A DNA stretch of 64,000 nt. Origin: Nannocystales bacterium (GTDB lineage: Bacteria; Myxococcota_A; Polyangia; Nannocystales; Nannocystaceae). The stretch lies in the NCBI GenBank assembly GCA_050633305.1, contig JBOEGF010000032.1:224001-288000 (forward strand), read 5' to 3'. A model generated the notes under the pieces. It was not told where the DNA came from. It saw nothing but the letters and a program-made list of their open reading frames with translations, and ran no database searches. Positions 1 to 22,623 of the stretch are shown here, piece by piece. Within the stretch, counting starts at the first letter, position 1; the number at the start of each line of letters is the position of its first letter. The position numbers were made by a program, and so were the translations under genes.

Positions 1-158
1 CGAGGTCCGCCGCGCCTGCAGCCGCGCGGATCACCGGGGCCAGTTTGACCGCCTCCGGTCGCGTGCCGACCACCACCAACACCCGCTTCACCCGCCCAGC
101 GTATCAACGAATTGCCGGCGCTTCGCATGGCAGTGGCGTCGAAGGTAGGGTTCCGCAG

Positions 159-2825
159 ATGCGCGCACGCTCCGTCACGCTTCTGACCGCCACCCTCGTG
201 GCTTCGGCGTGCGGCGATGGCCCTGAGCAGTCGCCGGCCAAGCCGACGGTCGCCGCGCCTTCAGCGGACTCCGCCTGCGACGAGCCCGCCCCCGCCCTGG
301 CCTGGACCCTCGAACCCCGTTCGGATGGTTCACTCGCCCTGAGCGTCGACCGGTCAACCTTCTTGGTGCTTCGACACGGTGCGCTGCGGGCCGCGGGAAG
401 CAACGCCAAGCCTTCGGTTCGCAAGCTCCCCTCCGAAGCGGACACCCTCGCCTTCGAGGTCACGTTCGAGTCCCTCCCGGTCGTGATCCGAGGGCTCGCG
501 AGCCTCCCCACGCCGTCCCAAGTCCGCCTCGAATACACGTTCGAGGCCCGGCAAGCGTTGCGAGATGTGCTGGGTGTCGGCCTTCAGGTCGACCTCGACG
601 CGCAGACCTGGTCGCTCCCCACCGACGCGCTGGAGATCATCGAGGGACGAGACCTCCGGGTCTCGAGTCCCGCCCTCGGCCAGGTGGAGGTCGCCTTTGA
701 TCGCGACGGAGCGGTTCCTCGCACCGCCCGCGATCACACTCGCCCGACCCGGGTTCGCTCGGCCTGGCTCGCTGGCGATAGCCCGGCGGGTACCACAACC
801 GCGGCGGTCACCCTCACGGTCCCTGGGACACTCGCCCTGCAGCCTCCGCTCGCCGCACGGTACGGCCCCCGAAACCTTGCGCAGTGGCACCGCGACGCCT
901 TGGTTCACGACGATTGGCCCGTCGACCTCAGCCACCTCAATGCCGCACACGGCCGTGCCGGAAGCCACGGCCCCGTGCGCGTCGACGGAGAGAGCCTGCG
1001 CTTCGAGGATGGAACAGAGGCGAGATTTTGGGGCACCAACCTCGCAGCATCCGCGCTGTTCAAGGCCGACGACGCAACGATCATTCGCGAGGCCAAACGG
1101 CTCTGTGCCCTCGGCTACAACCTCGTCCGGCTCCACCACCACGATGCAGCGTGGACGGATCGCAACGTCTTCGACACCTCCGAAGGCAACACCCAGAAGC
1201 TCGACGCCAAAGCGTTGGACCGCCTCGATTTTTGGATCGACACCCTGGCCTCCGAGGGCATCTATGTCTGGCTCGACCTGCACACCGGGCGCAGTTTCCT
1301 ACCTGGGGATGCGATCCCCGGATATGCCGACATGCTCTCGGGTCCCCACCCCAAGCAGGCACGAGGCTTCCAGTACATCAACCCACGGGTCGGAGCCCTG
1401 CTCGAAGGATTCGCGGAGTCGTATCTCCGCCGCAAGAACCCCTACACGGGACGTCCTTGGGCGCAGGAACCCGCGGTGGTCGGCCTCCTTCTCACCAATG
1501 AAAACGACCTGACGCATCATTTTGGTGTCGCATTTCGTCCAGAGACCGGCCGCGAGACCCACATCGCGCTGTTCGACGCGCTCGCGAAGGACATCACCGC
1601 CGAGCTCGGTCTCCCCAGGGACGCAGTGCGCAGCGTCCATCGACCTGGCCCAGGGAAAGTCCTGCTCGCTGAGATGCAACATCGTTGGGACGCACGCGCC
1701 CTAGCCCACCTACGCGGGCTTGGGGCCACGGCGCCCGCGGTGACTACGAATTTCTGGGGCTACGAGTCCTTGCTCAGCCTCCCGCCACTGGCCTCGGGGG
1801 ACATGCTCGATGCCCACAGCTACGGAAAAACGGAAGCGCTGAGCAAGAACCCGCACCGCACAGCGCACTGGCTGCACCACATCGCGGCGGCCCAGGTCTC
1901 GGGCAAACCGCTGACCGTGACCGAGTGGGCCGTCCCCAAACCGGCCGCCGATCGACACAGCGCGGGACTGTGGATCGCGGCGTTGGGCGGTCTTCAAGGT
2001 TGGGATGCCCTGCTGGCGTACAACTACGCCCAAACCCCCCTGGCTTCGGCCCCCACTCGTCAGACCCAGTGGGACCAGCGTGTCGATCCGGCGCAGCTGG
2101 GCCTGGCGCCCACCGCCGCGTTGATGTTCCGCCGGGGCGACATCGCCCTCGCGCGGACAACCACCGCGCTCGTGCCGTCGCTCGACGCCGTCTACGGTGC
2201 GCACACCAGCCCGAAACGTCAGGCTTCGCTGAGGACCGCGGCCGAGCAGACGCGGATGGTCATCGTGTTGCCCGACCATCCGCAACTCGACTGGGACACG
2301 GCAGGCACCGTGCCAAGCGGCGCCACCGTAGTCACCGACCTCGACGAAGACTTGCTCGATCCGTCCGCCACCTCGATCCGTTCGGACACCGGAGAGCTGG
2401 AACGAGACTGGACCCAAGGCGTTCTTCGCATCGACAGCCCACGAGTCCAGGCAGCGTCCGGATGGCTCGGCGGCAAGACCATCACCCTCGGAGACCTTCG
2501 GGTTCGGGTCGAGACCCCCACGGCAACCGTGTCGGCGATCTCCCTGGACGACGCCCCCCTCGCCGGAAGCCGGCGAATCCTCGTGACCGCGGTCGGCCGG
2601 GCCGAACCGCAGCCGGATGGGCACGTGCGGAGCGAGCCGATCTCCGGTGAGATCGCGCTTCGCACGCAGTCCAACGTGAAGATCGCGGCCCTGGGGGCCC
2701 GATCCCGAGCGTGGGATATCCCCGAGGACGCCGAAGCCATCCCCGGGACGCGGGAGGGCGCCTGGGTGCGCCTTCCCCTTCCCGATGCGCCCACGCACTG
2801 GTTCATCCTTGTTTTGGGCCCCTAA
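159..2825 (+). CDS. Secreted/lipoprotein glycoside hydrolase, clan GH-A (GH5-like), probably polysaccharide-associated (EpsB-like)
   Basis: Motifs RFWGTN, YNLVRLHH, GIYVWLDLH, NEN (putative acid/base Glu) and VTEW (putative nucleophile). The lipobox-like LVASAC follows ATG 159; the ORF track start at 45 is probably too long. Confidence 0.75.
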   Translation: MRARSVTLLTATLVASACGDGPEQSPAKPTVAAPSADSACDEPAPALAWTLEPRSDGSLALSVDRSTFLVLRHGALRAAGSNAKPSVRKLPSEADTLAFEVTFESLPVVIRGLASLPTPSQVRLEYTFEARQALRDVLGVGLQVDLDAQTWSLPTDALEIIEGRDLRVSSPALGQVEVAFDRDGAVPRTARDHTRPTRVRSAWLAGDSPAGTTTAAVTLTVPGTLALQPPLAARYGPRNLAQWHRDALVHDDWPVDLSHLNAAHGRAGSHGPVRVDGESLRFEDGTEARFWGTNLAASALFKADDATIIREAKRLCALGYNLVRLHHHDAAWTDRNVFDTSEGNTQKLDAKALDRLDFWIDTLASEGIYVWLDLHTGRSFLPGDAIPGYADMLSGPHPKQARGFQYINPRVGALLEGFAESYLRRKNPYTGRPWAQEPAVVGLLLTNENDLTHHFGVAFRPETGRETHIALFDALAKDITAELGLPRDAVRSVHRPGPGKVLLAEMQHRWDARALAHLRGLGATAPAVTTNFWGYESLLSLPPLASGDMLDAHSYGKTEALSKNPHRTAHWLHHIAAAQVSGKPLTVTEWAVPKPAADRHSAGLWIAALGGLQGWDALLAYNYAQTPLASAPTRQTQWDQRVDPAQLGLAPTAALMFRRGDIALARTTTALVPSLDAVYGAHTSPKRQASLRTAAEQTRMVIVLPDHPQLDWDTAGTVPSGATVVTDLDEDLLDPSATSIRSDTGELERDWTQGVLRIDSPRVQAASGWLGGKTITLGDLRVRVETPTATVSAISLDDAPLAGSRRILVTAVGRAEPQPDGHVRSEPISGEIALRTQSNVKIAALGARSRAWDIPEDAEAIPGTREGAWVRLPLPDAPTHWFILVLGP

Positions 2826-2992: not shown

Positions 2993-5900
2993 GTGTCTGA
3001 CGAGCGGGCAGCCTTCGCAGGACAGATCACCGACCTCCCGGTGGTGGAACTCCTACGAACCATCTCCAATGGGAAAAAGACGGGAGTCGCCCGTTTTGAG
3101 ACGAACCTCGGCACGGCGACCGTGTGGTTTCGAGAGGGCACCCTCGTCGACGCCGACATGGGGCGGTTCCACATGGGCGACGCGGTCCGGCGACTGATCG
3201 CGACGGATGCAGGCTCGTTCGAGGTTGAGTTCAAGCCCGTCACCCGCCGCCGATTGATCCAAGAGAACACCTCGGATCTCCTCGCGCATACACCCCAGCC
3301 CGCGTCCAAACCCACAGCGAAACCCGCCCCCGCGACGGGGTCTAAGCGGGAGTCCAAGCCCAAGCTTCCGCCCTTGGCCGACGATGCCCGCACTGGGCCG
3401 AGACCTCGGACACGCGCCGCCGCGGGATGGAAACCGACCGCCGGTGGCACGGGTCGCGATGGTGGCGCGGGAGCGGCGTCGCCCGACATGCTGCGCCGCC
3501 TCGAGGCGCTCCGGCGGGCGGCCGATCGTCAGCCACCTCGCCCGGACGTCCTGAACACGACCGCGGCATTGGGGACCCGGAGCCCCGTGAAGTCCGAACC
3601 GACCGGGCGCTCCACGGGCGAGACCCCCCAAGCCGGCCTCGAAGCGCTCAACCGCCTCGCGCAGAAAGCTGCCAAGACCCAGGCAGATCCAGCGAGTTCA
3701 GCCACATCGCCCAACGCGCCGGAGCCCAAGGCTCCGCGGACGGAGCAGAACGGTCCCCCCGAGGCGGAGCGCCAAACAGATCGCGCCCAAGGCCGCGGCG
3801 GCCGCCTCGACGCCGTCCCCCCGGCCACACCGCACGCCACCCCGGCCACGCCGCCTCAGCCGATCGAAGTTGAGAGCGAGCTGGATCTCGAGATGGCCAC
3901 GCGAGCGGTTCAGGCACCCCAAGCACCCCAGGCGACCCCCGCCCCCGCGGCGGCCCCATCCACGCCGAGCCAGCCGGAGCCGGCCCCGCCTCCCCCCGCG
4001 ACGCCGCGCGAAGCCGTGACCGCGCGGCCGGGACGAAGTCGGGGTCCACGGCCGACCGCGGCGATCGAGTCCCGTCGAGCCAAACGAACCTCGTCCGGCA
4101 TTCCCGCGCAGTCAAGCGCTCGCACCGGCGAGACCACGACCCCCGGCCGGACCAAGAAGGACGCCAACGGTTGGACCTTCGTCGATCCCAACCTCGCGAA
4201 AGAGGCCCAGGTCGAAGAGGACCACCGGGCCGACCAGACGATGATGCGGATGGGTCCGCTTCAGCTCCCGCAGGCCGCGAGCAAACGTCCGGGCGGAAAG
4301 CGGAAGCCCCCACGCGCGCAACCGGCGAATCGCCAGGCACACCCGACCCGGGTCGATCCATCGGAGGACCTGAGCGACCCGCTGCCCATCGGGACATCCT
4401 GGTCTGCACCAGCACACGTCGCAGCACCGCGCAGCAAGCCGATCGACAGCGAGCGCAACGACTCCGCTGGCGGTGAGATCGGAAAGGGCAGCCGACCCAG
4501 CGCCGGAAAGACCGTCGTCGCGTTCGCCCCGGATGCGCCGTCCAACCCGGATCCCGGCGGCACCATGACCCACGGGTTCCGTCCGATCACCGACGCCGAG
4601 GGTCCCGACGGCCAGGTACCCGGGCCCAACGCCGCAGGGCTCGCCCCTCGCAGTCCTGCGGCCCCCAAGCGAAAGCCCAGCGGGACGACGCCGCCAGGAG
4701 ACGCGACGAGTGCCGGCGGTGGCGCGCAGGTGGGCCGCTACGAGGTCCTGCTGCGGATCGCCCGAGGCGGCATGGGCACCGTCTACCTGTGCCAGGTCAC
4801 CGGCACCGGGGGCTTCCGCCGCCTCTTCGCACTGAAGGTCATTCGCGACCATCTCAGTCGCAACGAAGAGTACGTGCGGATGCTGCTCCAAGAAGCACGC
4901 ATCGCCTCCCGGCTGCACCACCCCAACGTCGTCGGCATCGTCGACATCGGCAACCTCGCCAACCAGCACTACCTGGTGATGGACTACGTCGAGGGCTGCA
5001 CGCTCTCCGAGCTCCTCAAGGTTCACCGCAAGACACGACCTCCACACCTCATCATTCCAATCGTTCTCGATGCGCTCACGGGTCTACACGCAGCGCACTC
5101 GCTGACCGATGACGATGGCTCCCCGCTCACCCTCGTGCACTGCGACTTCTCTCCGCAGAACATGCTCGTGGGCACCAACGGGATCTGCCAGATCACCGAC
5201 TTCGGGATCGCGCGGGCCTCCAACGCGCTCCCCGAGCGGTCAAGCATCACCCGCGGCAAGCCGGCCTACCTCGCGCCGGAGCAGATCACGGGGCGGCCAT
5301 TCGATCATCGGGCCGACATCTTCGCGTCGGGTGTCGTGCTGTGGAACGCCCTCACCGGGGAGCAACTCTTCAAGGGCGACACGCCCGAGGAGGTGCTCGA
5401 CAAGGTGCTCAACATGCAGATCCCCGCGCCGAGCACGGTGGGCCTGCGCCCACCCAAGAAGCTGGACAAGGTCGTACTGCGCGCCCTTGAGCGCGACCCT
5501 GCCCGGCGCTACCAGAGCGCCGAGGAGATGCTGATCGAGCTCCGCAAAGTCGCGATCGGCAGCGACCTGCTCGCCCCGTCCAGCGAGGTGGCGCAGTGGG
5601 TCGCGGACACGTTCGGTGCCCAGCTCGAGCTTCGGCGCCAAGCGGCGGGGCTCTCCCCCAACAACACCGCGTCGGCAAAGCAACCCGCTGCACCCGCAGA
5701 GGTGACCGCGCTCGCCCTGCGAGACGACGCACCGGGGGCGGACGACTCCGCCACGCATGCGTTGCTCTCGCACCAAGGCCCGGCCTCCGATGCGTCGAAC
5801 ACGATGATGCTGCAGTCGGGCAAGGCCCCTGCTGCCGCTCCGACGGAACGGGCGAGCGATGCGGTGCTCGGCGACCGCGCGCGAAAGATCGTCATTGGGA

Positions 5901-6502
5901 TGGTCGTCTCCGCGTGCGCGACCCTCGTCGCGATCGCCGTCGTCCGTCCGGAACTCCTGACCGGCGGCATGCTCGACGAGGGCGGCGAGTACATCGACCT
6001 GGGCCCCTCGGAGGGCGACCCCAACTTCGACGAATCCCTCGATGATCCGGCTGTTGCCCCGAAGCCAGCGGCCAAGCCCGCGACACCCAATGATCCCAAG
6101 GCCCCCAAGGCCCCCGAGGCCCCCAAGGTCGGCGCCGAGGTCCCAACGCCCGGGACGGATGTCCCCGAGCCCCCCCCCGCCGACCTCGACCCGCTCCCCG
6201 AGTTGACGCCGGAGCCGGTCGAAGAACCCAGCACCCCGCGACCGGAAGCGCCGCGCAAACCGACGACGCCCAAGTCAGGCGACAAGCCGGCCAAACCCGC
6301 GACGCCCAAGCCCGGCAGCAAGCCGGCCAAGCCCAAGTCGGGCGGCGAGACCTCGAAGAAGCCCAAGGCTCAGGACAAGCCCGGGGCCCAAGGCAAGCCG
6401 AAGGCCGACGACAAACCCAAGGCCGACGACAAGCCCAAGTCCGACGACAAACCCAAGGCCGACGCGCCCGAGCTGCCCAGCGCGCCGAAGTTCGACTTCT
6501 GA
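2993..6502 (+). CDS. Membrane Ser/Thr (Hanks-type) protein kinase with N-terminal DUF4388/PATAN-like domain, long Pro-rich linker, one TM helix and a Pro/Lys-rich C-terminal tail
   Basis: Kinase motifs RGGMGTVY, FALK, HPNVV, HCDFSPQN (non-RD), DFG, YLAPEQ, DIFASG. The N-terminal FAGQITDLPVVELL...KKTG...WFREG pattern is DUF4388-like. TM segment IVIGMVVSACATLVAIAVV. Start uncertain (2903/2945/2993). Confidence 0.9.
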   Translation: MSDERAAFAGQITDLPVVELLRTISNGKKTGVARFETNLGTATVWFREGTLVDADMGRFHMGDAVRRLIATDAGSFEVEFKPVTRRRLIQENTSDLLAHTPQPASKPTAKPAPATGSKRESKPKLPPLADDARTGPRPRTRAAAGWKPTAGGTGRDGGAGAASPDMLRRLEALRRAADRQPPRPDVLNTTAALGTRSPVKSEPTGRSTGETPQAGLEALNRLAQKAAKTQADPASSATSPNAPEPKAPRTEQNGPPEAERQTDRAQGRGGRLDAVPPATPHATPATPPQPIEVESELDLEMATRAVQAPQAPQATPAPAAAPSTPSQPEPAPPPPATPREAVTARPGRSRGPRPTAAIESRRAKRTSSGIPAQSSARTGETTTPGRTKKDANGWTFVDPNLAKEAQVEEDHRADQTMMRMGPLQLPQAASKRPGGKRKPPRAQPANRQAHPTRVDPSEDLSDPLPIGTSWSAPAHVAAPRSKPIDSERNDSAGGEIGKGSRPSAGKTVVAFAPDAPSNPDPGGTMTHGFRPITDAEGPDGQVPGPNAAGLAPRSPAAPKRKPSGTTPPGDATSAGGGAQVGRYEVLLRIARGGMGTVYLCQVTGTGGFRRLFALKVIRDHLSRNEEYVRMLLQEARIASRLHHPNVVGIVDIGNLANQHYLVMDYVEGCTLSELLKVHRKTRPPHLIIPIVLDALTGLHAAHSLTDDDGSPLTLVHCDFSPQNMLVGTNGICQITDFGIARASNALPERSSITRGKPAYLAPEQITGRPFDHRADIFASGVVLWNALTGEQLFKGDTPEEVLDKVLNMQIPAPSTVGLRPPKKLDKVVLRALERDPARRYQSAEEMLIELRKVAIGSDLLAPSSEVAQWVADTFGAQLELRRQAAGLSPNNTASAKQPAAPAEVTALALRDDAPGADDSATHALLSHQGPASDASNTMMLQSGKAPAAAPTERASDAVLGDRARKIVIGMVVSACATLVAIAVVRPELLTGGMLDEGGEYIDLGPSEGDPNFDESLDDPAVAPKPAAKPATPNDPKAPKAPEAPKVGAEVPTPGTDVPEPPPADLDPLPELTPEPVEEPSTPRPEAPRKPTTPKSGDKPAKPATPKPGSKPAKPKSGGETSKKPKAQDKPGAQGKPKADDKPKADDKPKSDDKPKADAPELPSAPKFDF
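6395..6463 (+). repeat. 18-bp coding tandem repeat (KPKADD) in the kinase C-terminus
   Basis: aaggccgacgacaaaccc-like units, about 3.5 copies. Confidence 0.7.
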
Positions 6503-6563: not shown

Positions 6564-8033
6564 TCAGCTTGCGCCCTTGTGGAACAAAACCGTCGGCACG
6601 GTCTTCAGCAGGATCTTGATGTCGAGCCAGAAGCTCCAGCTGTCGATGTACTCGAGGTCCAGTTGCATCCACTCGTCGAAGTCGACCTGGTTGCGGCCAC
6701 TGACCTGCCACAGCCCCGTGAGTCCCGGTTTGACCGAGAGACGGCGACGCTGCCACGCCTCGTAGTCGTCCACCTCCGACGGCAACGGAGGCCTCGGTCC
6801 TACGAGACTCATGTCGCCCATCACGATGTTGAAGAACTGCGGAAGCTCGTCGATGCTCGTCTTGCGAATGAACCGACCGACCGCGGTGATTCGTGGATCC
6901 CGCTTGATCTTGAACACCGGCCCGCCCATTTCATTGAGGTGCATCAACGCGGCCTTCTTGGCCTCGGCGTCGATCACCATCGAGCGGAACTTGTACATGG
7001 TGAACTTGCGACCGCTGCGACCCGCGCGGACCTGCTTGAACAGTACCGGGCCCTTCGAGTCGAGCTTGATGGCCAGCGCCGCGACGATCATGATCGGGCC
7101 GGCGAGGACGATGCCGACCACACCGCCCAGGATGTCCAGCAGCCGCTTGCCCACCAACTGAGCCTCTGCCGTCGGCGTTCGGCGGAGTCCGATCATCGGC
7201 TGGTTCACGCCCGAGACGTTCGCCAGCTCCATCTTGCCGCTCGCCGGAACCTGGGGGGGAAGCGTGAGAAGCACGTCGACGCCTCGGTCGTCGCACGCGG
7301 AGAGCGCCTCGCGGAACGTGTCTGGAGACTTTCCGGGGACCGCGAAGACGACCTCATCCACTGGCATCCGGTCCAGCAGGGCATCCAAGGAGCCGACATA
7401 GCCCAAGCGGGGACGGGCCTGTGGGCTGCTCGACTCGCCCATCACGCCAACGAAGCCCTGAATCTCGAGCCGGATCGGGCTTGCTTCGCTGAGCTGTTGC
7501 GCGAACTCGACCGCCCGCGGGCCGGTTCCGACGATCACCACGCGGTGGGCGTCACCGCGCCGGCGCCGGGCCATACGCACGGCCTCCAACAGCAGCACCC
7601 GACCCGAGGTGAGCGCGATCAACTGAAGCACCGCGAACAGGATCACGAACGTCCGAGAAATGAACGTCAGCTTGAAGAGGAAGGCGAGCAGGATCAGCAT
7701 CCCGACGCCCATCGTGGCGGCCTGTAGGTATCGCCACGCGATGCGACGGTGCGCGATTCGGAAGTCGTAGGACTTCGTGTACTGGAGCGAGAGCGCCCAA
7801 AGCGGCAGCAATGCGAGCAGCAGGAGCTGGTAGTCCTCCGGCGCCAAAGGCGGGGGACGCTCCCCGTACCACGCAACCACGCGGCGCACGAAGCCCGACA
7901 CCTCGGCGGGATCGCGAGCGGCCTGTCCCACCCAACTACGGAGGAACAGAGCGAGAACGAAGGCCCCGGCGCTGACGATCGTATCGACCCCCAGGAGCAC
8001 GCGACGGACAAAGGTGGTTCTGCGACGCCACAT
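6564..8033 (-). CDS. Priming polyprenyl-phosphate hexose-1-phosphate transferase (WbaP/WcaJ/EpsZ-like)
   Basis: N-terminal TM helices, a CoA-binding-like VVIVGTG segment, and a C-terminal Bac_transf domain (KRLLD, YKFRSM, DPRIT, RKTSIDELPQ, GDMSLVGPRP, KPGLTGLWQVSGR). Confidence 0.95.
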   Translation of the reverse strand: MWRRRTTFVRRVLLGVDTIVSAGAFVLALFLRSWVGQAARDPAEVSGFVRRVVAWYGERPPPLAPEDYQLLLLALLPLWALSLQYTKSYDFRIAHRRIAWRYLQAATMGVGMLILLAFLFKLTFISRTFVILFAVLQLIALTSGRVLLLEAVRMARRRRGDAHRVVIVGTGPRAVEFAQQLSEASPIRLEIQGFVGVMGESSSPQARPRLGYVGSLDALLDRMPVDEVVFAVPGKSPDTFREALSACDDRGVDVLLTLPPQVPASGKMELANVSGVNQPMIGLRRTPTAEAQLVGKRLLDILGGVVGIVLAGPIMIVAALAIKLDSKGPVLFKQVRAGRSGRKFTMYKFRSMVIDAEAKKAALMHLNEMGGPVFKIKRDPRITAVGRFIRKTSIDELPQFFNIVMGDMSLVGPRPPLPSEVDDYEAWQRRRLSVKPGLTGLWQVSGRNQVDFDEWMQLDLEYIDSWSFWLDIKILLKTVPTVLFHKGAS

Positions 8034-8273
8034 AGGTGGGCAAGGCCAGACGAGCGCAACCGGGCGGCGGGACCGAGCGAAATGCGCAGCGACCGCGACC
8101 GAGGGGCATGGTGTCAGGTTTCGACGACCGTGAAAAGGCCGAGAACGCGCCTCATGCGTTCCCGATCGTGACCCGACGATGGGTCCCGCGGAAGCCCGCG
8201 GCGCGGTATGCTAACCACCTTCCCGAGCCCGATGGTCAACTCGAATCGAACTGGCCGAACTCTCGTTCCCGGC

Positions 8274-10277
8274 ATGCAACACGCCTCCCAGGGCACCGGC
8301 CACGGTCTCGGCGGCCCGGCTGGGGGCGCGGGCGGCAATGGAGCGGGCCTCGACGCCATGTTGGAGGTTGTCGGAGACAGCCCCGCGGCGGGATCGGCCC
8401 ACGCGTTCTTCCTCGTGATCAGTGGGTCCGAACCGGGCCGGCTTCACGTCCTGGAAAAACAGGAGCTGGTGATCGGTCGCAGCAAATACGCCGACATCCG
8501 CATCAGCGAGCGGGCGATGTCCCAGCAGCACGCCAAGGTCGTGCAAACCGCGGAAGGACATCGGCTCTACGACTTGGGCTCCACCAACGGGACGTTCGTC
8601 AACGACAACCAGATCGAGTCCGTCGACCTGCGTGCGGGCGACGTCGTCCGCACCGGTGAGACGGTGTTCACGTACATGGCCTCGGGCTCCGGCGCCCCGA
8701 TGGATGGTGGCGTTGGCGGACGTGGCGACAGCACCGTCGCCCTCCCCAACCGGCCACGAGGAGCCGCCCCGCCCCCCGCCGCAACACCCCTGATCGCTGC
8801 GCCACTGCCGGGCGCGCAGCCCACCGGCGGCGGTGCACTGGCCCTGCGTTCACAGGTTGCCCCCGCCGCGGTGGCGATGACGCCTCAGGTCATCGGTGTC
8901 CCCGCCGCCGCCCCCGTCGACGAGGAGAGCGATCCCATCGGGATGCTCATCAAGGTCCTCGACTTCGCGAAGCGGTATTGGCTGCAGATCGCGATCTTCA
9001 CAGTCCTCGGCGCCGGGTTGGGCGTCGCGAGTTACAAGTTCGCAAAGCCGCCGGCGGTCGCCACGTTCGAGGTGCAGCTCATCCAGCCGCCGACCGACAA
9101 CATGATGACCAAGGGCCGACGGATGAACTTCGAGTTCTTCCGGTCCGCCCAGAAGAGCTTCCGCCGCCCGGCGATCATTCGCGCATCGCTCGAGGCGCTC
9201 GGCGAAGAAGACTCCTCGCAGAACCGACTGCGGAAGGTCCGCGACTCCCTGGTCTTCAAGCAGGCCAACCGTCGGCAAGCCAAAGATGTCTACGAAGGCA
9301 GCTACAAGGCTGCAACGGCTGACGACGCGCTCGAGTACCTGCGCGTCCACCTCAAGATCTTCATCGATGCCGAGATCGACAAGGCCATGAAGGTCTTGCA
9401 CGTCGAGGTGGAGACGCTGGAGAAGAAGCTCAAGCAGGCGGACGAGGACCTCAGCGCCACCGAGCAGGCGGTGATGGCGTTCCGCCAAGAGCACAGCGAG
9501 GGCCTGCCCGAGCAAGCCCAAGCGATGTACCAGGAGTTGATGACCCTGCGCTCCGCGAAGGGAGCCACGGCGGGCGCCGTCACGCGGGCATCCGAGGAGC
9601 TTCGAAACCGACGCAAGCAGCTCAAGTCCAAGGCGCCCGAGTTGCAGACCCGCATCGACCTGGCGCGCCCCTACGAGGACTCGATCTCCGAGATCAACCG
9701 ATCCCTGGGAGAAGCCCGGGCAGCAGGGAAGGCCTCCCAGCACCCCGACGTCATCAAGCTCAAGCGACAAAAAGCCAGCCTCGAGAAACAGCGGGATCAG
9801 GTCCTCAAGAACGGCGGCAGCAAGATCGTTCGCGAGAGCAACCCGGCGTATGAGGGCCGACGTGAGGCCAAGGACTCGGCCGAGGCTGAACTCCGAATCG
9901 CACAGTCTCAGCTCGGTCGCCTGACCAACGACATGGACCGGGCCAAGAAACTGGTCGCGGCGCTGCCCAGGCTCCAGCGCGAGTACGCGGAGCTGACACG
10001 CAGCTACGAGGCCACCACCGCCGTCCGCAAGCGCGTGTTCGACAACCTCGAGTCGAGCCGGATCCAGCTCGACCTCGAGCGCGCGTCCGCTGCGACCCGG
10101 TACGACATCACGACGCCGCCGAACGTCGAGCCGGTCAAGAAGGTCAAGACGATCGTTACACGGGCGGGCGCGCTGGGCATCCTCGGGTTCGGGTTTGCGA
10201 TTTTCCTGGGCTTGCTGCGCGACCTCCGTCGGGTGCTCGCCACCCGCATGGCACAGCGCGGCTCCGGGCGCGCCTAG
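8274..10277 (+). CDS. FHA domain fused to a Wzc/GumC-like polysaccharide co-polymerase (EpsV-like), without a BY-kinase domain
   Basis: FHA motifs IGRS, SQQHA and GSTNGTFVN; TM1 WLQIAIFTVLGAGLGVASY; long coiled coil with FRQEH, HPDVIKL and LPRLQREYAELTRSY; TM2 near the C-terminus, then a tail of about 20 aa. Start uncertain (8208/8232/8274). Confidence 0.85.
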   Translation: MQHASQGTGHGLGGPAGGAGGNGAGLDAMLEVVGDSPAAGSAHAFFLVISGSEPGRLHVLEKQELVIGRSKYADIRISERAMSQQHAKVVQTAEGHRLYDLGSTNGTFVNDNQIESVDLRAGDVVRTGETVFTYMASGSGAPMDGGVGGRGDSTVALPNRPRGAAPPPAATPLIAAPLPGAQPTGGGALALRSQVAPAAVAMTPQVIGVPAAAPVDEESDPIGMLIKVLDFAKRYWLQIAIFTVLGAGLGVASYKFAKPPAVATFEVQLIQPPTDNMMTKGRRMNFEFFRSAQKSFRRPAIIRASLEALGEEDSSQNRLRKVRDSLVFKQANRRQAKDVYEGSYKAATADDALEYLRVHLKIFIDAEIDKAMKVLHVEVETLEKKLKQADEDLSATEQAVMAFRQEHSEGLPEQAQAMYQELMTLRSAKGATAGAVTRASEELRNRRKQLKSKAPELQTRIDLARPYEDSISEINRSLGEARAAGKASQHPDVIKLKRQKASLEKQRDQVLKNGGSKIVRESNPAYEGRREAKDSAEAELRIAQSQLGRLTNDMDRAKKLVAALPRLQREYAELTRSYEATTAVRKRVFDNLESSRIQLDLERASAATRYDITTPPNVEPVKKVKTIVTRAGALGILGFGFAIFLGLLRDLRRVLATRMAQRGSGRA

Positions 10278-10329: not shown

Positions 10330-11694
10330 TCAGCGACGACCGCCGCTGGCGGCATCGGAGTTTCCGCGCGTCGACCGGGTGACCGCGCCCTGGCCACCGC
10401 CGCCAACCTCTTGCCCGCCGCGGGCTGTGCCGGCTCCGATTCGGTAGGCGACGTACAGCCAGGCTTCGGACTGGCCTAGGGAGAAGTCCTCCGCTGCGAG
10501 GTGGGGGGCGCGGGCCGTCGCCAGCAGTCCGAACTCGAACTGCTGCTCGTCCGAGATCTGGTACGTGACCGGGAGCGCGACCCGGAACTGGCTCTCCGTG
10601 ACCGGCCGAGTCGATTCCCCGTCCAAGCTCTCCCGCGGCGCTCGTGGATCCCGGGTGGCGTTGGTGATCGCCCCGACCATCCCGCGAATGGACCAACGCG
10701 GAGGCAGGGACACCTGGACCGATGCGTTGAGCGTCGCACGCGGGCTGAGGTCGATCTGAACGCGATCGAAGTAGGGGGTGAGACCAGCCGAGAGCGTCGC
10801 GTCCACGCTGTGGCTCGCGCTGCGAACGAGCCCGCCGGTCACCGATGCCAAAGCGACGGGCAGCACGGGCACGTCGTCGGTTCGAGTGTTGCCGAGCCCG
10901 GCCGATCCGAACACGCCCGCGCCCACCGTCGATTGCAGCGACGGACGGATGTCGCGGCGCCACTGTCCCACCGCTTGCGCGGTCATGAACTGCGTGTCGC
11001 CAGAGTTGTAGTCGAAGTAACCCGGGGTGACCTCGACCTCCACGGAGTCGGCTTGCGAGACTCGAGTGTCGAGCGACACCGCTCCATTGATGCTGAGCTG
11101 CTCGGGAATTCCTGCCGAGGACAACTGCTGGCTGTCGTCAGTGACCTCGGGGATGCCCAAGGGTGTCCGGTAGACGATGTCCGTTCGAAGCCCCAGCGTG
11201 TGGCGGCGGGTGAGTCGGCCCTCAGCGCTCAGGCCCGCCGAGCCCACCGCGATCTGAAGGACCGATGCCTCTGTCCGTGAGACGTTCGGAGCATCGGCTC
11301 CGTCGCCGATGATCTCCGGTGCCGCGTTGTACCCGACCTCCCCGACGCTGCCGCCGAGGTTCACGCCCAACGTCCAGCGAGCGTCCACAGGCTGCCGCAC
11401 GGTTGCGTACGCTTGATGCAGAAGCAACGGGAGGTCGGCATCGAGCAGGTTGGGTTCACGATGCTGAACCCGAGGCGTGTAGCCGAGATTGAACAAGGTT
11501 CCACGGCGGGACTCGACCTCCATGTCGACGTCGGGAGTCAGAATCACAAGGACCGTCGGGACCGCCGACTCTTGGGGGGCGGGTGGCGCCCAACCACCGC
11601 GAACCTCGATCGCCGCACCACCAGACACATCCACACGGGACGCGGCGGGGTCCGCTGCGAACCACAGCGCGGCGAGAAGGCTCAACGAACTCAT
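10330..11694 (-). CDS. Outer-membrane beta-barrel for polysaccharide export (EpsX/Wzp-like)
   Basis: Signal peptide and alternating amphipathic beta-strand pattern; lies directly downstream of the short OPX gene. Confidence 0.65.
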   Translation of the reverse strand: MSSLSLLAALWFAADPAASRVDVSGGAAIEVRGGWAPPAPQESAVPTVLVILTPDVDMEVESRRGTLFNLGYTPRVQHREPNLLDADLPLLLHQAYATVRQPVDARWTLGVNLGGSVGEVGYNAAPEIIGDGADAPNVSRTEASVLQIAVGSAGLSAEGRLTRRHTLGLRTDIVYRTPLGIPEVTDDSQQLSSAGIPEQLSINGAVSLDTRVSQADSVEVEVTPGYFDYNSGDTQFMTAQAVGQWRRDIRPSLQSTVGAGVFGSAGLGNTRTDDVPVLPVALASVTGGLVRSASHSVDATLSAGLTPYFDRVQIDLSPRATLNASVQVSLPPRWSIRGMVGAITNATRDPRAPRESLDGESTRPVTESQFRVALPVTYQISDEQQFEFGLLATARAPHLAAEDFSLGQSEAWLYVAYRIGAGTARGGQEVGGGGQGAVTRSTRGNSDAASGGRR

Positions 11695-11704
11695 CGGGGT
11701 CGAC

Positions 11705-12325
11705 CTACTCGACTACGAGGACATCGCCGTCACGCAACACGATCTTGCTCGGGCATTCCACGCCGCCAGCGAGGTCGTAGTAGTTGAACCGCACCCGGAC
11801 CCGCTGCGGGTACTTGCGCACGAGGTAGATGCTCTTCACGTCGGCGAACTCGGTCAGGCCACCGGCGAGGGCGAGGGCCGCGAGCAGCCCCTCTTCGTGC
11901 TCCATCGGGAACCGACCCGGGCTGCGAACTTCTCCGACCACCGACACATACGGAAAACGCTGGTTGACGACCGAGATGTTCGCGTCCGGGTTGACGACAA
12001 TGCCGTTGAGACGTGCGTTGAGTTTTCGCTCCGCCGCCTCGAGCGTCAGGTCGGCGACCTCGAGCGCACCGACGAGGGGCAGAATCACGCTTCCATCGGC
12101 GGTGACCGTGTAGGGATCCCGCGCCTGCAATTCTTCCATGCGCGGAACCGTGACCACCACCTGGTCGCCTGCGCGCAGCGGTGTATCGCCCACCGACACG
12201 TCGGCATCCGGGACGTCTTTGCACTGCACGTACGGATGTTGCGGCTTGCAGCCGGACAGGGCCAGGACGCCAGCGATGGCGAGAATCATCGTTCCAAGGG
12301 GTCGCGTGCCCACGAGCGCCATCAT
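11705..12325 (-). CDS. Short OPX polysaccharide export lipoprotein (Poly_export + SLBB; EpsY/Wza-like)
   Basis: Lipobox LSGC; motifs GDQVVVTV, DGSVILPLVG, VVGEVRSPG, ALALAGGLTEFA, LRDGDVLVV. No C-terminal helical outer-membrane-spanning domain. Confidence 0.9.
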   Translation of the reverse strand: MMALVGTRPLGTMILAIAGVLALSGCKPQHPYVQCKDVPDADVSVGDTPLRAGDQVVVTVPRMEELQARDPYTVTADGSVILPLVGALEVADLTLEAAERKLNARLNGIVVNPDANISVVNQRFPYVSVVGEVRSPGRFPMEHEEGLLAALALAGGLTEFADVKSIYLVRKYPQRVRVRFNYYDLAGGVECPSKIVLRDGDVLVVE

Positions 12326-12498
12326 CGACCCGAGGCGACCCAAGCGCAACCTGGTGGGAGACGAGGACACTCGCGCCCTGCAATTGTCCAGGATCGCGCC
12401 ATCGGGGCCATCCCCTGGCCCGTCCTAACACCTCGGGTTCGCCATGAAACCGTGGCCATCGGTACATCTGACGGTATGCTTGTATGGAGGGACCCACG

Positions 12499-12858
12499 AT
12501 GGACGAGACCGCCAACGACACGAGCGCCGCAGAGCGCCGCGAATTCCCGCGGATCCAGGCGCCCATCTACTGCAGGCCGGCACACCGCCGCTTGCGGCGT
12601 CGCAAGGTGGTCGACGTAGGGCTCGGAGGCATGCGGGTCTACAGCGACGAACCGTTCGCCATCGGCGCTCGGTTCGAAGTCGAGCTGTTCATGTCCGACG
12701 GGGACAGTGTCAATTGCCTCACCGAGGTCATGTGGACCCGGCCGATCCCCGGTGGCCAGCCCGCCCCCTTCGATGTCGGCCTGAAGTTCCTCCACGTCCC
12801 CGAAGCTGGGTACGCGAAGCTGACGGCCCTGCTCGAAGTCTCAGGCGACCGCAGCTAG
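12499..12858 (+). CDS. Stand-alone PilZ domain protein
   Basis: RREFPR (RxxxR) and DVGLGG (DxSxxG variant); EVMW...GLKF; GGAGGG RBS upstream of ATG 12499. Confidence 0.85.
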   Translation: MDETANDTSAAERREFPRIQAPIYCRPAHRRLRRRKVVDVGLGGMRVYSDEPFAIGARFEVELFMSDGDSVNCLTEVMWTRPIPGGQPAPFDVGLKFLHVPEAGYAKLTALLEVSGDRS

Positions 12859-12913: not shown

Positions 12914-13750
12914 CTACGACGTGAGCTGATCCAGCACCGCCGCAACGTTGTCGCGCCAGTGTGGCATCGGACCCAACAACGCCTCGGTCGGCGCGAGATC
13001 CAGGACCGAGTACGCCGGCCGCACCGCAGGCCTTGGAAAGGCCTCGGACGAACAGGGCTGGACGTCGCAGTCGGGGTTCACGGTGGCAATCACCGCCGCC
13101 GCAAACTCATGCCACGTGCACTCGCCACCATCGGTGACATGCAGCGTTCCCCGAGCACCCGCCTCGAGCAGGCCCAGCGACGCGGACGCAAGATGCTGCG
13201 CGCTGGTGGGTCGCCCTCGCTGGTCGTCGACGACCTGAAGGGTGTCCCGCTCGGCACCCAACTTGCGCATCGTGAGTACGAAGTTCTTTCCCCAGGGCGC
13301 ATACAGCCAGCTCGTGCGCAAGATGAGGTGCTCGGCATTCGACGCCCGGATGAGCGTCTCGCCATGCGCCTTGCCCCGACCGTATGCGTTGACCGGGTCG
13401 TGCGCGCCATCCGTCGGGTATGGGACGGTCGCATCGCCAGCAAAGACGTAGTCGGTGCTGTAGTGCACGAGCACGCTGCCTGCCTCCGCACAACAGGCCG
13501 CCAGCCGCCCGACCGCATCGCCGTTGAGCGCAGTGGCCTGCGCCTCTTGGGCCTCGGCACCATCGACGTCGGTCCAGGCAGCGCAGTTGATCACACGGCC
13601 GTACCCGCCCTCTGAAACGCGGGCCAGCGACGCCTCGGACGTGAGGTCGAAGTCTGGGAACGAGACCGACTCGAAGGGCAGCCCCTTCTCCTCGAGCAGG
13701 TTCTTCCACGCCTGGCCCAGCATCCCATCGGGGCTGATCAGTAGGTCCAT
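12914..13750 (-). CDS. rmlD: dTDP-4-dehydrorhamnose reductase
   Basis: GMLG, INCAAWTDVDGAE, STDYVF, YGRGK, VVDDQRGRPT, RPAYSVL. Confidence 0.95.
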   Translation of the reverse strand: MDLLISPDGMLGQAWKNLLEEKGLPFESVSFPDFDLTSEASLARVSEGGYGRVINCAAWTDVDGAEAQEAQATALNGDAVGRLAACCAEAGSVLVHYSTDYVFAGDATVPYPTDGAHDPVNAYGRGKAHGETLIRASNAEHLILRTSWLYAPWGKNFVLTMRKLGAERDTLQVVDDQRGRPTSAQHLASASLGLLEAGARGTLHVTDGGECTWHEFAAAVIATVNPDCDVQPCSSEAFPRPAVRPAYSVLDLAPTEALLGPMPHWRDNVAAVLDQLTS

Positions 13751-13751
13751 C

Positions 13752-14321
13752 TCAGCCGACCTCCGGCTCGGAAAACGGTGGAAGCGTGTCGGGGGGGATC
13801 GCAGAGAGTCGCGGATACACTTTGTCTTTCTCCGAGAGGGAGGGCTCCGCGACGGGCCATTCGATGCCGACCTCGGGGTCGTTCCACAACACCCCGTGTT
13901 CGCACTCCGGGTGGTATCCGTCGGTGCACTTGTACGAGAACAGCGCTTCGTCGGAGGTCACGCAAAAGCCGTGAGCAAACCCGGGGGGAACGTAGAACTG
14001 GCGGTGGTTGTCGGCGGAAAGCGTCACCCCGACCCATTGCCCGAACGTCGGGGATCCGCGCCGAACATCGACTGCGACGTCGAACACCTCGCCTTGCAGC
14101 ACTTGAACGAGCTTTCCTTGCCCGTGGGGATGCTGCAGATGCAACCCGCGCAGCACCCCTCGCGACGACTTGGAGAGGTTGTCCTGAACGAACGGAGCGG
14201 CGATGCCAGCCTCCGCGTACCGCTGTGTCGAGTATGTCTCCTTGAAGAAGCCGCGGCTGTCCCCGAACACCCGGGGTTCGATGATCACGAGCCCGGGGAT
14301 CTTGGTGGTCTCGACCTTCAC
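13752..14321 (-). CDS. rmlC: dTDP-4-dehydrorhamnose 3,5-epimerase
   Basis: [46 protein letters not shown]. Confidence 0.97.
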
Positions 14322-15217
14322 CGAAGTGACTCCGAGGCGTTGGCCAACCGCGCAAGGTACTGGCCGTACTCGGTCTTCTTGAGCGGGTCAGCCAACGCTG
14401 CGAGGGCCTCCGTGTCGATCCAGCCCGCGCGGTACGAGATTTCCTCGGGGCATGCGATCTGCAGCCCCTGGCGTTGCTCGATCGTCTGGATGAAGTTGGC
14501 CGCCTGCATGAGCGCGTCGGGGTTGCCAGTGTCGAGCCACGCGAACCCGCGGCCGAGTCGCTCGACCCGCAGCTTGTCCTGCTCGAGGTACCGACGGTTG
14601 AGGTCAGTGATCTCCAGCTCCCCACGAGGCGAGGGTTTGAGCGATGCCGCGAGGTCGCAGACCTGGTTGTCGTAGAAGTACAAGCCGGTGACGGCCCAGT
14701 TGGACTTGGGCTTGGCCGGTTTCTCCTCGAGGCTGAGGCAGCGCCCTTCCCCGTCGATTTCCGCCACGCCGTAGGCTTGTGGTTCCTTGACCCAGTAGCC
14801 AAACACCGTGGCACCCTCCTGAGTCGAGGCCGCCTTGCCCAGCAGCTCGGGCAGGCTCGCGCCGTAGAAGATGTTGTCGCCCAGGACCAGGCAGCACCCT
14901 TCGTCGCCAACGAAGTCCTTGCCGATGATGAACGCCTGCGCGAGCCCGTCGGGGCTGGGCTGAACGGCCCACTGGATGTTCATGCCCCACTGGCTTCCGT
15001 CGCCAAGCAGCCGCTGGAACATCTCTTGCTCGTGCGGAGTCGTGATGATCAGGACGTCCCGAATCCCCGACAGCATCAGCGTCGAGAGCGGGTAGTAGAT
15101 CATCGGCTTGTCGTACACCGGCATCAGCTGCTTGCTGACGCCCTTGGTGAGCGGATGCAACCGGGTTCCCGACCCGCCTGCGAGGATGATGCCCTTTGTG
15201 ATTCCAGTGCTGCTCAT
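14318..15217 (-). CDS. rmlA: Glucose-1-phosphate thymidylyltransferase
   Basis: [47 protein letters not shown]. Confidence 0.97.
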
Positions 15218-15275
15218 CGATTCGCTTCAACTGTTCGTCGGTTGACTGTCGGTCGGGCCGCGCGAGGCGGCCGGC

Positions 15276-16325
15276 CTAGTCGGCGCGGTTGGTGTAGTTC
15301 TTCTCGATCCAGTTGCGGTACTCGCCGCTGCGCACCTGCCCAATCCATTCGGGATTGTCGAGGTACCAGTGGACCGTCTTGCGGAATCCGGTCTCGAACG
15401 TCTCGGCCGGAGACCAGCTCAACTCGGTCTCGATCTTGGTGGCATCGATCGCGTAGCGAAGGTCGTGCCCGGGTCGGTCCTTGACGTAGGTGATCAGCGA
15501 CTCGAGTTCGCGGGTCGGCTTGCCTTGGCGCTCGGCGACCAGCTTGCAGATGATCTTCACCACGTCGATGTTGCGGACCTCGTTGTTCCCACCGATGTTG
15601 TACGTGTCGCCGACCTTGCCCTCGTTGACCACTTTCCAGATGGCTTCGCAGTGGTCGGTCACGTACAGCCAGTCGCGCACGTTGAGCCCCTCGCCATACA
15701 CCGGAAGCGGCTTGCCCTCGGCCGCGTTGAGCGTGATCACTGGGATGAGCTTCTCGGGGAACTGCAGCGGACCGTAGTTGTTGGAGCAGTTCGTGATCTT
15801 GACCGGGAGGCCATAGGTGCGGTGGTACGCACGCACCAGGTGATCGCTGGATGCTTTCGAGGCCGAGTACGGGCTCGAGGGGTCGTAACGGGTGTCCTCG
15901 ACGAACATCCCAGTCTCCCCCAGGGAACCGTAGACCTCGTCGGTGCTGACGTGATGGAACAGCCCGTTGTCCTTGCCCCACCGTTTGCGAGCCTCTTCCA
16001 GCAGGTTGAACGTGCCGATGATGTTGCTCTCGATGAAGGCGCGCGGGCCCTCGATCGACCGGTCGACATGGCTCTCGGCAGCGAAGTGCACGACCGCGTC
16101 GGGCTTGTGCTCCTCGAACGCTTCGGCGACGGCCTTCGCGTCCGCGATGTCGAGCTGGACGAAGCTGTAGTTCGCGGCGTCCGCGATACCCGCAAGGCTC
16201 CCGAGGTTGGCCGCGTACGTCAGCTTGTCGGCGTTGATGAAATGATGCTCGCCGTGCCGCGGCACGAGGAGATTGAGGAAGTTGGCGCCGATAAATCCCG
16301 CGCCTCCAGTGACCATGATCCGCAT
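15276..16325 (-). CDS. rmlB: dTDP-glucose 4,6-dehydratase
   Basis: [50 protein letters not shown]. Confidence 0.97.
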
Positions 16326-18382: not shown

Positions 18383-18634
18383 CTACCAGCCGCCTTCGTC
18401 TTTCTTCTCAGCGCCGTCCTTGGCCTCTGGTTTGTCGGCCTTGGCGTCGTCCTTCTTGTCGTCGGCCTTGGCGTCGTCCTTCTTGTCGCCAGCCTTGGCG
18501 TCGTCCTTCTTGTCGCCAGCCTTGGCATCGTCCTTCTTGTCAGCCTTGGCGTCGTCCTTCTTGGCGTCGTCGCACGCGACAACGCCGAGGCACAGAGGGA
18601 GGGCGAGGAGTGTGGTGAGGATGCGGACGTTCAT
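18383..18634 (-). CDS. Small lipoprotein (83 aa) made of KKDDAKA(G)D repeats and ending in GGW
   Basis: Signal peptide with lipobox VVAC; ATG overlaps the upstream kinase stop codon (ATGA); GC-rich third positions. Confidence 0.75.
   Translation of the reverse strand: MNVRILTTLLALPLCLGVVACDDAKKDDAKADKKDDAKAGDKKDDAKAGDKKDDAKADDKKDDAKADKPEAKDGAEKKDEGGW
18432..18570 (-). repeat. 24-27-bp coding tandem repeat (KKDDAKAGD), about 5 copies
   Basis: ccttggcgtcgtccttcttgtc units repeated on the + strand. Confidence 0.85.
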
Positions 18635-20199: not shown

Positions 20200-20347
20200 G
20201 TCCTGAGCATTGTACGCGGCCCCGTAGCCCCCCCGCACCCCCGTTCCATGTCGCCAGCGCTCCGAATCGGGCCGGTTGAAACGCCACAGCCGCACGGCTG
20301 TCGACGCATTCTCGAGGGTCTGCCACACTCCCGGGCCAGACCTCATC

Positions 20348-22623
<2,276 letters not shown>

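Follow-up and report, generated by a model that had tools for sequence, protein, structure and literature searches.

The gene at positions 8232–10277 of the forward strand in a 64,000-nucleotide stretch of DNA from a Nannocystales bacterium (the window) encodes a polysaccharide co-polymerase (PCP) fused to an FHA domain. Sequence searches and structure prediction confirm that the protein is a Wzc-like co-polymerase in which an N-terminal FHA domain is followed by a first transmembrane (TM) helix, a periplasmic coiled coil, TM2, and a 19-residue tail, and in which the bacterial tyrosine kinase (BY-kinase) domain is absent. This architecture likely represents an undescribed way of controlling polysaccharide secretion. 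In the model that we favor, to which sequence comparison and predicted structures lead us to assign a probability of about 0.55, a membrane Hanks-type kinase encoded in the same locus would place phosphothreonine (pThr) on a cytoplasmic segment of the co-polymerase itself for the FHA domain to read, replacing the phosphorylation cycle of the Tyr tail.

An earlier note on this DNA placed the gene at 8274–10277. That frame is indeed open (forward strand, 667 amino acids, third-codon-position G+C content of 0.85), but its likely start is the ATG at 8232. A matching ATG begins the protein in four congeners and, in three of these four, the frame is closed six codons upstream of it, which argues for the longer form. 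A start at 8274 would therefore cut off a conserved, Thr-bearing N-terminal arm. The gene contains the following elements:

8232–10277, forward strand: FHA-fused polysaccharide co-polymerase, 681 amino acids from the likely start (TIGR03007, fold model, congener starts)
8247–8273, forward strand: N-terminal arm with the motif R-T-G-[RKH]-T-x-x-P-G, a candidate phospho-site (homologue alignment)
8472–8591, forward strand: FHA pocket signature, comprising G-R (8472–8483), S-x-x-H (8520–8531), and N-G (8580–8591) (alignment)
8727–8747, forward strand: post-FHA linker motif [DE]-x-T-x-x-[LVIM], a candidate FHA ligand (homologue records)
8976–9032, forward strand: TM1 (hydropathy, AlphaFold2 model)
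10152–10217, forward strand: TM2 (hydropathy, AlphaFold2 model)
10218–10274, forward strand: basic helical tail of 19 amino acids without the (L)PV[LI][GA] segment that docks BY kinases or EcpK (model, tail comparison)

The FHA domain matches PF00498 with an E value of 1.6e-15. Its G-R, S-x-x-H, and N-G residues are invariant in a 50-row alignment and are kept in 106 of 108 homologue records; the remaining two are fragments that lack the domain. These and the other homologue counts given below refer to the 108 co-polymerase homologues found among the best 120 of 215 protein-search matches. With its pocket residues and β-sandwich fold, the domain is likely a binder of pThr, as predicted from sequence and model. 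The periplasmic part finds its best NCBIfam match in the chain-length-determinant model TIGR03007 (E 4.6e-28), at a score of 97.7 that lies below the cut-off of 278.85. Two hydrophobic helices flank the periplasmic coiled-coil domain, as in PCP-2a proteins such as Wzc. The AlphaFold2 model (pLDDT 80) consists of the FHA domain, about 80 disordered residues, TM1, a small α/β domain, long helices, TM2, and a helical tail. When this model was compared with known structures using Foldseek, the Wza-Wzc complexes (9r68, 9r64) ranked first, followed by the FHA domains of OdhI, GarA, and DgcB, on which the FHA part superimposes at an rmsd of 0.9–2.7 Å. The arm and the linker are disordered in a model of the cytoplasmic part alone. 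The profile and AlphaFold check that the earlier note had called for thus bears out its description of an N-terminal FHA domain that keeps the pThr-binding residues and of two TM helices around a coiled coil with a tail of about 20 residues.

Named homologues among the matches listed are proteins from Nannocystaceae or from Myxococcota or Deltaproteobacteria metagenome-assembled genomes; no cultured carrier is among the names listed, and carriers are mostly uncultured myxobacteria. The co-polymerase part is found in 30 of 72 genomes of the order, in 8 of 17 genera. A profile search detected the family in 72 of 400 genomes of the class, namely in 28 of 65 genomes of the source genome's own family (f1) plus the source genome, and in three other families (f77, 40 of 75; f86, 2 of 2; f2, 1 of 34). 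Among 401 genomes of the phylum, one FHA fusion occurs outside the family and the other matches are co-polymerases without FHA; the nearest non-FHA relatives are of the bipartite PCP-2b or the Wzc kind. A scan of genome contigs with the full alignment was discarded, as generic FHA matches dominated it (one of 80 loci held a family member). At L143:9112-11787, L144:1669-4020, and L142:53-2002, outside recognizable polysaccharide loci, the fusion occurs as a second copy; two of these copies have decayed pockets. In genus g20 of family f3 (L154, L157, L162, L163, L164, and L168), co-polymerases of about 660 amino acids carry a C-terminal extension that begins like a BY kinase and has no Walker A match; these extensions are possibly fused pseudokinases, judging from their sequences.

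The tail described in the earlier note as lacking Walker A/B motifs and a Tyr cluster has the same character throughout the family. No Walker-A-like motif follows the FHA domain in any of 106 listed relatives, and the last 25 residues contain zero or one Tyr in all 106. The median tail after TM2 is 19 amino acids long and is modeled as a plain helix. The docking segment (L)PV[LI][GA] is absent from all 106 tails; it is visible in three EpsV-position proteins, in a Wzc encoded on contig C19 of the source genome, and in several non-FHA relatives. An HHalign comparison indicates that the co-polymerase is homologous to EpsV through TM2 (91%) and that the alignment stops just past TM2. PCP-2 proteins without a kinase are already known in EpsV/EcpK and HfsA/HfsB, and published models dock the pseudokinase EcpK to the C-terminal ~25 residues of EpsV (PMC12004946). 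Absence of the kinase domain alone is therefore not new; what is new here is the FHA fusion together with the lost docking tail.

We searched for an EcpK-like pseudokinase with a profile of 12 Myxococcaceae rows. EcpK itself was obtained from the genomes behind three named Myxococcales loci and was matched to PMC12004946 by two numbered Glu residues and a basic C-terminus. The profile, which is narrow enough that a very divergent EcpK could escape and which does not cover HfsB-like proteins, found nothing credible in the source genome, with a distant positive control recovered at 8.6e-30, and nothing in 72 genomes of the order, a scan without a positive control of its own. No standalone BY kinase stands beside any FHA fusion, and neither a BY kinase nor EcpK matched in 40 f77/f86 loci, which come from 37 of 42 genomes after five partial matches were left out. 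By score and motif, the BY-kinase-type matches in the source genome are two fused Wzc proteins and ParA/MinD/Mrp-like ATPases, one of which was inspected. In genera without the fusion, no sister locus was found that has a BY kinase at that position, and the orthologue of the outer-membrane polysaccharide export (OPX) protein is missing there too. An EpsZ search of the 401 phylum genomes gave nothing over threshold. By sequence, the co-polymerase falls outside PCP-2a, PCP-2b, and the EcpK subfamily under their defining tests, yet it is a PCP-type protein. The survey for BY kinases proposed in the earlier note therefore ended without a standalone BY kinase or EcpK.

The kinase invoked in our model is encoded upstream of the co-polymerase:

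2993–6502, forward strand: membrane Hanks-type kinase with DUF4388, a low-complexity region, a non-RD kinase domain, one TM helix, and a Pro/Lys-rich periplasmic tail
5138–5161, forward strand: non-RD H-C-D loop
5744–5815, forward strand: juxtamembrane T-x-x-L motifs
5888–5944, forward strand: TM helix

The source genome encodes 265 kinases among 8776 called genes, and 956 of 8511 genes (11%) have a kinase within two genes, so a single adjacency means little and only conservation gives it weight. An orthologue of the kinase is present in 24 of the 30 fusion-bearing genomes of the order and in none of the 42 without the fusion. It is adjacent to the fusion in 17 of the 24, split from it at contig ends in 2, and moved in 5. 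The kinase lies directly upstream of the fusion in G009 and G011; transferase, kinase, and fusion stand in a row in G009 and G347, and in G347 the kinase overlaps the start of the fusion by 4 bp. Among the 40 f77/f86 loci, 18 hold the kinase, in 17 cases upstream and on the same strand. In quick trees, the kinases in the loci of f1, f2, and f77 group into a single non-RD clade (SH-aLRT 87–90). The conservation that the earlier note had asked about is borne out across these three families, often with kinase and fusion sharing an operon. A kinase on contig C45 of G009 (58% identity) was rejected as a partner: it has an H-R-D loop, is sister to the clade, and lies outside a sugar locus. All 22 kinases compared keep the catalytic Lys, the Glu of helix C, the Asp and Asn, and the DFG motif. 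Prediction of a complex between the kinase (385 amino acids) and the arm-FHA-linker segment (180 amino acids) gave scores of 0.30, 0.33, and 0.23 against a mark of 0.32, in a setting with no control pairs and in which phosphate is not representable.

Ten to 20 kb before the window (L190:218-10711) lie three kinase-like genes and genes for a PP2C phosphatase, a fructosamine kinase, and a low-molecular-weight tyrosine phosphatase, a cluster that G001 and G066 conserve in part. The two phosphatase genes, 10–15 kb before the window, were not counted as parts of the locus, as they belong to a separate kinase cluster seen in three loci; it is possible that they encode erasers of the pThr mark.

We scored the FHA pocket in 64 of 74 copies; the 10 left out were redundant or near-duplicate, partial, or frameshifted. 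All 36 copies with a kinase have an intact pocket, and it is altered or absent in 22 of the 28 copies without a kinase in the locus (3 lack the FHA domain, 10 have lost Arg and/or Ser, and 9 have only Asn changed to Glu). Genome-wide, no kinase orthologue was found in any of the 16 f77/f86 genomes with altered pockets or in either of the two g7 genomes; among three genomes with intact pockets on short contigs, two have an orthologue and the third is ambiguous. The pattern of a pocket kept with the kinase and mostly decayed without it is suggestive, and with 3–5 independent contrasts it is not significant. Among the Asn-to-Glu variants, those in L312, L321, L322, L324, L328, L330, and L335 carry an N-terminal E-T-L-S/N-F/Y-like motif that resembles the GarA and DgcB tails; from sequence, such variants may still work, through a different kinase. 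In 13 of the 40 f77/f86 loci, all kinase-less (L306, L310, L312, L314, L318, L320, L321, L322, L324, L328, L329, L330, and L335), the co-polymerase continues in frame into the OPX protein, in the order TM2, short basic stretch, signal-like helix, retained G/P-G-C lipobox, and OPX. Judged from this order, the PCP-OPX fusion would be either a tethered conduit or a polyprotein that signal peptidase II cleaves.

Two conserved Thr motifs in the cytoplasmic part are candidate targets of the kinase. The R-T-G-[RKH]-T motif of the arm occurs in 64 of 78 listed records long enough to show the arm. The linker motif occurs in 61 of 83 listed records, compared with a mean of 5.3 (maximum 12) in shuffled linkers, and it is also present in kinase-bearing f77 copies. 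A looser T-x-x-hydrophobic linker motif was counted in 20 of 25 copies with the kinase and 8 of 16 without it, with 23 rows unparsed. In DgcB, the protein's own tail binds its own FHA domain through a Thr with an acidic residue at −2 and a hydrophobic residue at +3 (PMC6733907), a pattern that the linker motif fits. In the scheme we envision, the dedicated membrane kinase would take the place of the tyrosine-kinase cycle and phosphorylate a conserved Thr, located either in the linker motif or in the N-terminal arm. This pThr would become a ligand for an FHA domain, either of that protomer or of the next one, as in GarA, OdhI, and DgcB. Binding would move the co-polymerase ring between an assembled and a relaxed state, in the way that phosphorylation of the Tyr tail does in Wzc, and this shift would tune polymerization and hand-over to the OPX/barrel, with both on and off directions possible. 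The protein would thus work like Wzc in structure and is likely DgcB/GarA-like in control, by analogy.

A number of observations weigh against this scheme. The arm does not fit the DgcB-tail pattern (acidic −2, aliphatic +3); copies from f77 lack it, and several g15 copies have no linker motif, so that no single Thr is universal. The catalytic loop of the kinase reads H-C-D-F-S-P (D-x-S-P-x-N) and departs from the H-R-D-x-K pattern. The loop Lys after the catalytic Asp is usually taken as a mark of Ser/Thr kinases, and with that Lys missing, specificity for Thr can only be presumed. D-x-S-P-x-N is shared by 28 of the 265 kinases of the source genome, 26 of which also have G-K-x-x-Y. The kinase has been relocated away from the locus in five g15 genomes. 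Most f1 carriers form one clade in a quick rpoB tree, and the OPX orthologue co-occurs with the fusion even better than the kinase does (29 of 30); the presence/absence counts are therefore not independent and in part reflect the locus being inherited as a unit. In nine of the 22 altered pockets, Asn to Glu is the only change, and these may still bind. G048 (95% complete) and G031 (71%) have an intact pocket and no kinase orthologue that we could find, and G046 has the kinase together with a decayed second copy of the fusion. The pocket changes state four times on the tree; independent contrasts were concordant in 3 of 4 pairs (p 0.25) when four ambiguous rows were left out, and in 1.3 of 5 pairs on average (p 1) when all rows were used. 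Two complete Wzc genes are present elsewhere in the source genome. The earlier note's proposal that Hanks-kinase/FHA signaling acts in place of, or alongside, the BY-kinase cycle is therefore upheld in part: the kinase is conserved and the docking tail is gone, but kinase-less PCP-2 proteins were already known, and two full Wzc genes and a PilZ gene, a candidate for another input, are present.

The remaining genes near the co-polymerase are as follows:

45–2825, forward strand: GH5-like glycoside hydrolase, a conserved neighbor of the kinase in genera g1 and g17
6564–8033, reverse strand: priming phosphoglycosyl transferase, WcaJ/EpsZ-like (PF02397; TIGR03025 over cut-off)
10330–11694, reverse strand: putative, weakly supported outer-membrane β-barrel partner of OPX (conserved synteny; pairwise E 0.002 to an EpsX-position protein)
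11705–12370, reverse strand: short OPX lipoprotein, EpsY-like (lipobox; NF041843 E 8.8e-23, below cut-off), with a start probably at 12325
12484–12858, forward strand: single-domain PilZ protein with RxxxR and DxGxxG motifs (PF07238 E 2.8e-13)
12914–16325, reverse strand: rmlB, rmlA, rmlC, and rmlD for dTDP-rhamnose synthesis (family matches)

The priming transferase, the short OPX, and the DUF4388 kinase with its single TM helix are thus the neighbors that the earlier note described. Its OPX/β-barrel pair stands as to the short OPX, but the barrel candidate has no Pfam or NCBIfam match. The OPX protein, 206–221 amino acids long, is of the short lipoprotein type without a pore helix. The genes do not form a single operon in the source genome, where the transferase is divergent and barrel and OPX are convergent. 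Loci of relatives add Wzy, Wzx, and glycosyltransferases, and on contig C24 of the source genome the closest homologues of Wzy and Wzx from one relative are found together. The co-polymerase probably acts in a Wzx/Wzy pathway that has a short OPX. Beyond the rml genes, also on the reverse strand, 16416–18377 encodes a protein of ~610–650 amino acids without a family match that is conserved directly upstream of rmlB in 14 loci, and 18631–20763 encodes a hybrid histidine kinase with an FHA domain (EspA/EspC-like), whose gene comes after the rml genes in many f1 loci. On contig C19 (L192:10399-15350), a complete Wzc without sugar genes among its annotated neighbors lies immediately downstream of another Hanks kinase that has the same orientation.

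It is conceivable, though in our judgment unlikely, that the FHA domain binds pThr on the autophosphorylated kinase, at a juxtamembrane T-x-x-L, and only tethers the kinase to the export apparatus, whereas the regulated substrate would lie elsewhere (for example, the priming transferase or Wzy) and the state of the ring would not be switched. Most kinase orthologues have a conserved S-x-T-x-x-L-R-like motif between kinase domain and TM, the kinase often adjoins the transferase gene, and the co-polymerase has no universal self-site; a Tyr kinase that phosphorylates the priming transferase CapM is known (PMC12802240). A looser version of the juxtamembrane motif is found in 83 of 228 kinases of the source genome, however, and the motif is therefore not specific, while the conserved Thr motifs of the co-polymerase would need some other role. 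We consider it more doubtful still that the co-polymerase needs no phosphorylation, in the manner of Wzz or EpsV, and acts with the help of an undetected pseudokinase or by mixing with a full Wzc, the FHA domain being a structural spacer. Export does seem possible without the kinase-FHA module, because lineages that have no kinase retain the gene within intact polysaccharide loci despite a decayed or lost FHA domain. BY pseudokinases also diverge fast; TIGR03018 missed the EcpK genes in G650 and G651. The Wzc on C19 is an orphan. Against this stand the missing docking tail, the intact pocket of every kinase-bearing copy, and the presence of three OPX genes for three co-polymerases in the source genome, a ratio that is compatible with three separate pathways.

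The PilZ protein possibly fills the role of EpsW in the Myxococcus eps cluster, by analogy, and its conserved gene makes it a candidate for a second control input. Least probable to us is the stronger claim that cyclic di-GMP, acting through PilZ, is the real switch and that kinase and FHA domain are co-inherited passengers or serve localization, such as polar secretion. PilZ genes of the RxxxR/DxGxxG type are present in 24 of 34 f1/f2 loci listed, including those of kinase-less g7, and the single-domain regulator EpsW of M. xanthus activates the priming transferase (PMC12802240). Yet no PilZ match was found in the 40 f77/f86 loci, where the pairing of kinase and FHA persists, and decay of the pocket would be left unexplained. 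A pThr switch on the co-polymerase itself remains the reading that we prefer.

Membrane kinases paired with FHA readers gate other envelope machines, namely PknB-MviN-FhaA (PDB 3oun, among our fold matches) and PpkA-Fha1 of type VI secretion. In both, the FHA domain is a separate protein and the machine is not a polysaccharide co-polymerase. E. coli Wzc (PCP-2a; PDB 9r68, 9r64, 9r62) is what the membrane and periplasmic part resembles most closely in fold; unlike Wzc, the protein described here has no BY-kinase domain, Walker motifs, or Tyr cluster, and it is accompanied by a short OPX instead of Wza. Bipartite PCP-2b proteins of the CapA/CapB type (TIGR03007 with TIGR03018) give the best NCBIfam match of the periplasmic part, but that match is below cut-off and there is neither an adjacent BY kinase nor a docking tail. 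EpsV/EcpK of Myxococcus xanthus and HfsA/HfsB of Caulobacter are likewise kinase-less proteins with two TMs and long periplasmic helices, encoded near a short OPX and a priming transferase (PMC12004946). Compared with EpsV/EcpK, the present system has an N-terminal FHA domain, a tail without the EcpK-docking segment, no EcpK that we could find, and a Hanks-type kinase that travels along. The EpsY/EpsX translocon (PMC9601211) shares the short lipoprotein OPX; a counterpart of its adjacent 18-stranded barrel is only putative here, with conserved synteny and the pairwise E value of 0.002 behind it. DgcB of Bdellovibrio (PMC6733907), GarA, and OdhI are alike in the FHA fold and in having a conserved Thr on a disordered stretch of the protein itself; in our case the switch would act on a membrane export ring, the motif that fits better lies C-terminal to the FHA domain, and self-binding is presumed. 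In the capsule system of Streptococcus suis (Stk1-CcpS-CpsB; PMC10148854), a Ser/Thr kinase also affects a Wzx/Wzy pathway through pThr, but there it acts via the BY-kinase cycle (CpsBCD) that is absent here, and the abstract mentions no FHA domain. We found no description of an FHA-fused PCP-2 protein in a search of the open-access literature, and "FHA" occurs zero times in the main texts of PMC12004946, PMC12802240, PMC9601211, and PMC9603273, whose supplementary gene-cluster figures for myxobacteria could show such a gene.

It is tempting, as a tentative proposal for which we would claim somewhat less than even odds, to regard these proteins as a fourth control class of PCP-2, in which a Hanks kinase and an FHA domain have replaced the tyrosine autokinase and the docking tail. 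The linker pThr of one protomer would be gripped by the FHA domain of the next, recreating the ring switch of Wzc through other chemistry and under a signal-sensing membrane kinase; loss of the kinase would lead to decay of the FHA domain, often with fusion to OPX, and to a likely unregulated one-gene conduit. The role of co-polymerase phosphorylation in Wzx/Wzy polymerization and export is still argued from Wzc alone, and EpsV/EcpK has already shown that tyrosine phosphorylation is dispensable. The natural kinase-plus and kinase-minus variants, together with the PCP-OPX fusion, would allow a test of whether the ring cycle or the chemistry of the kinase is decisive, and the small cytoplasmic parts make an in vitro assay possible without culturing the hosts. 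If the model is true, it would link the large and mostly unassigned kinase set of myxobacteria, 265 members strong in the source genome, to a defined envelope output.

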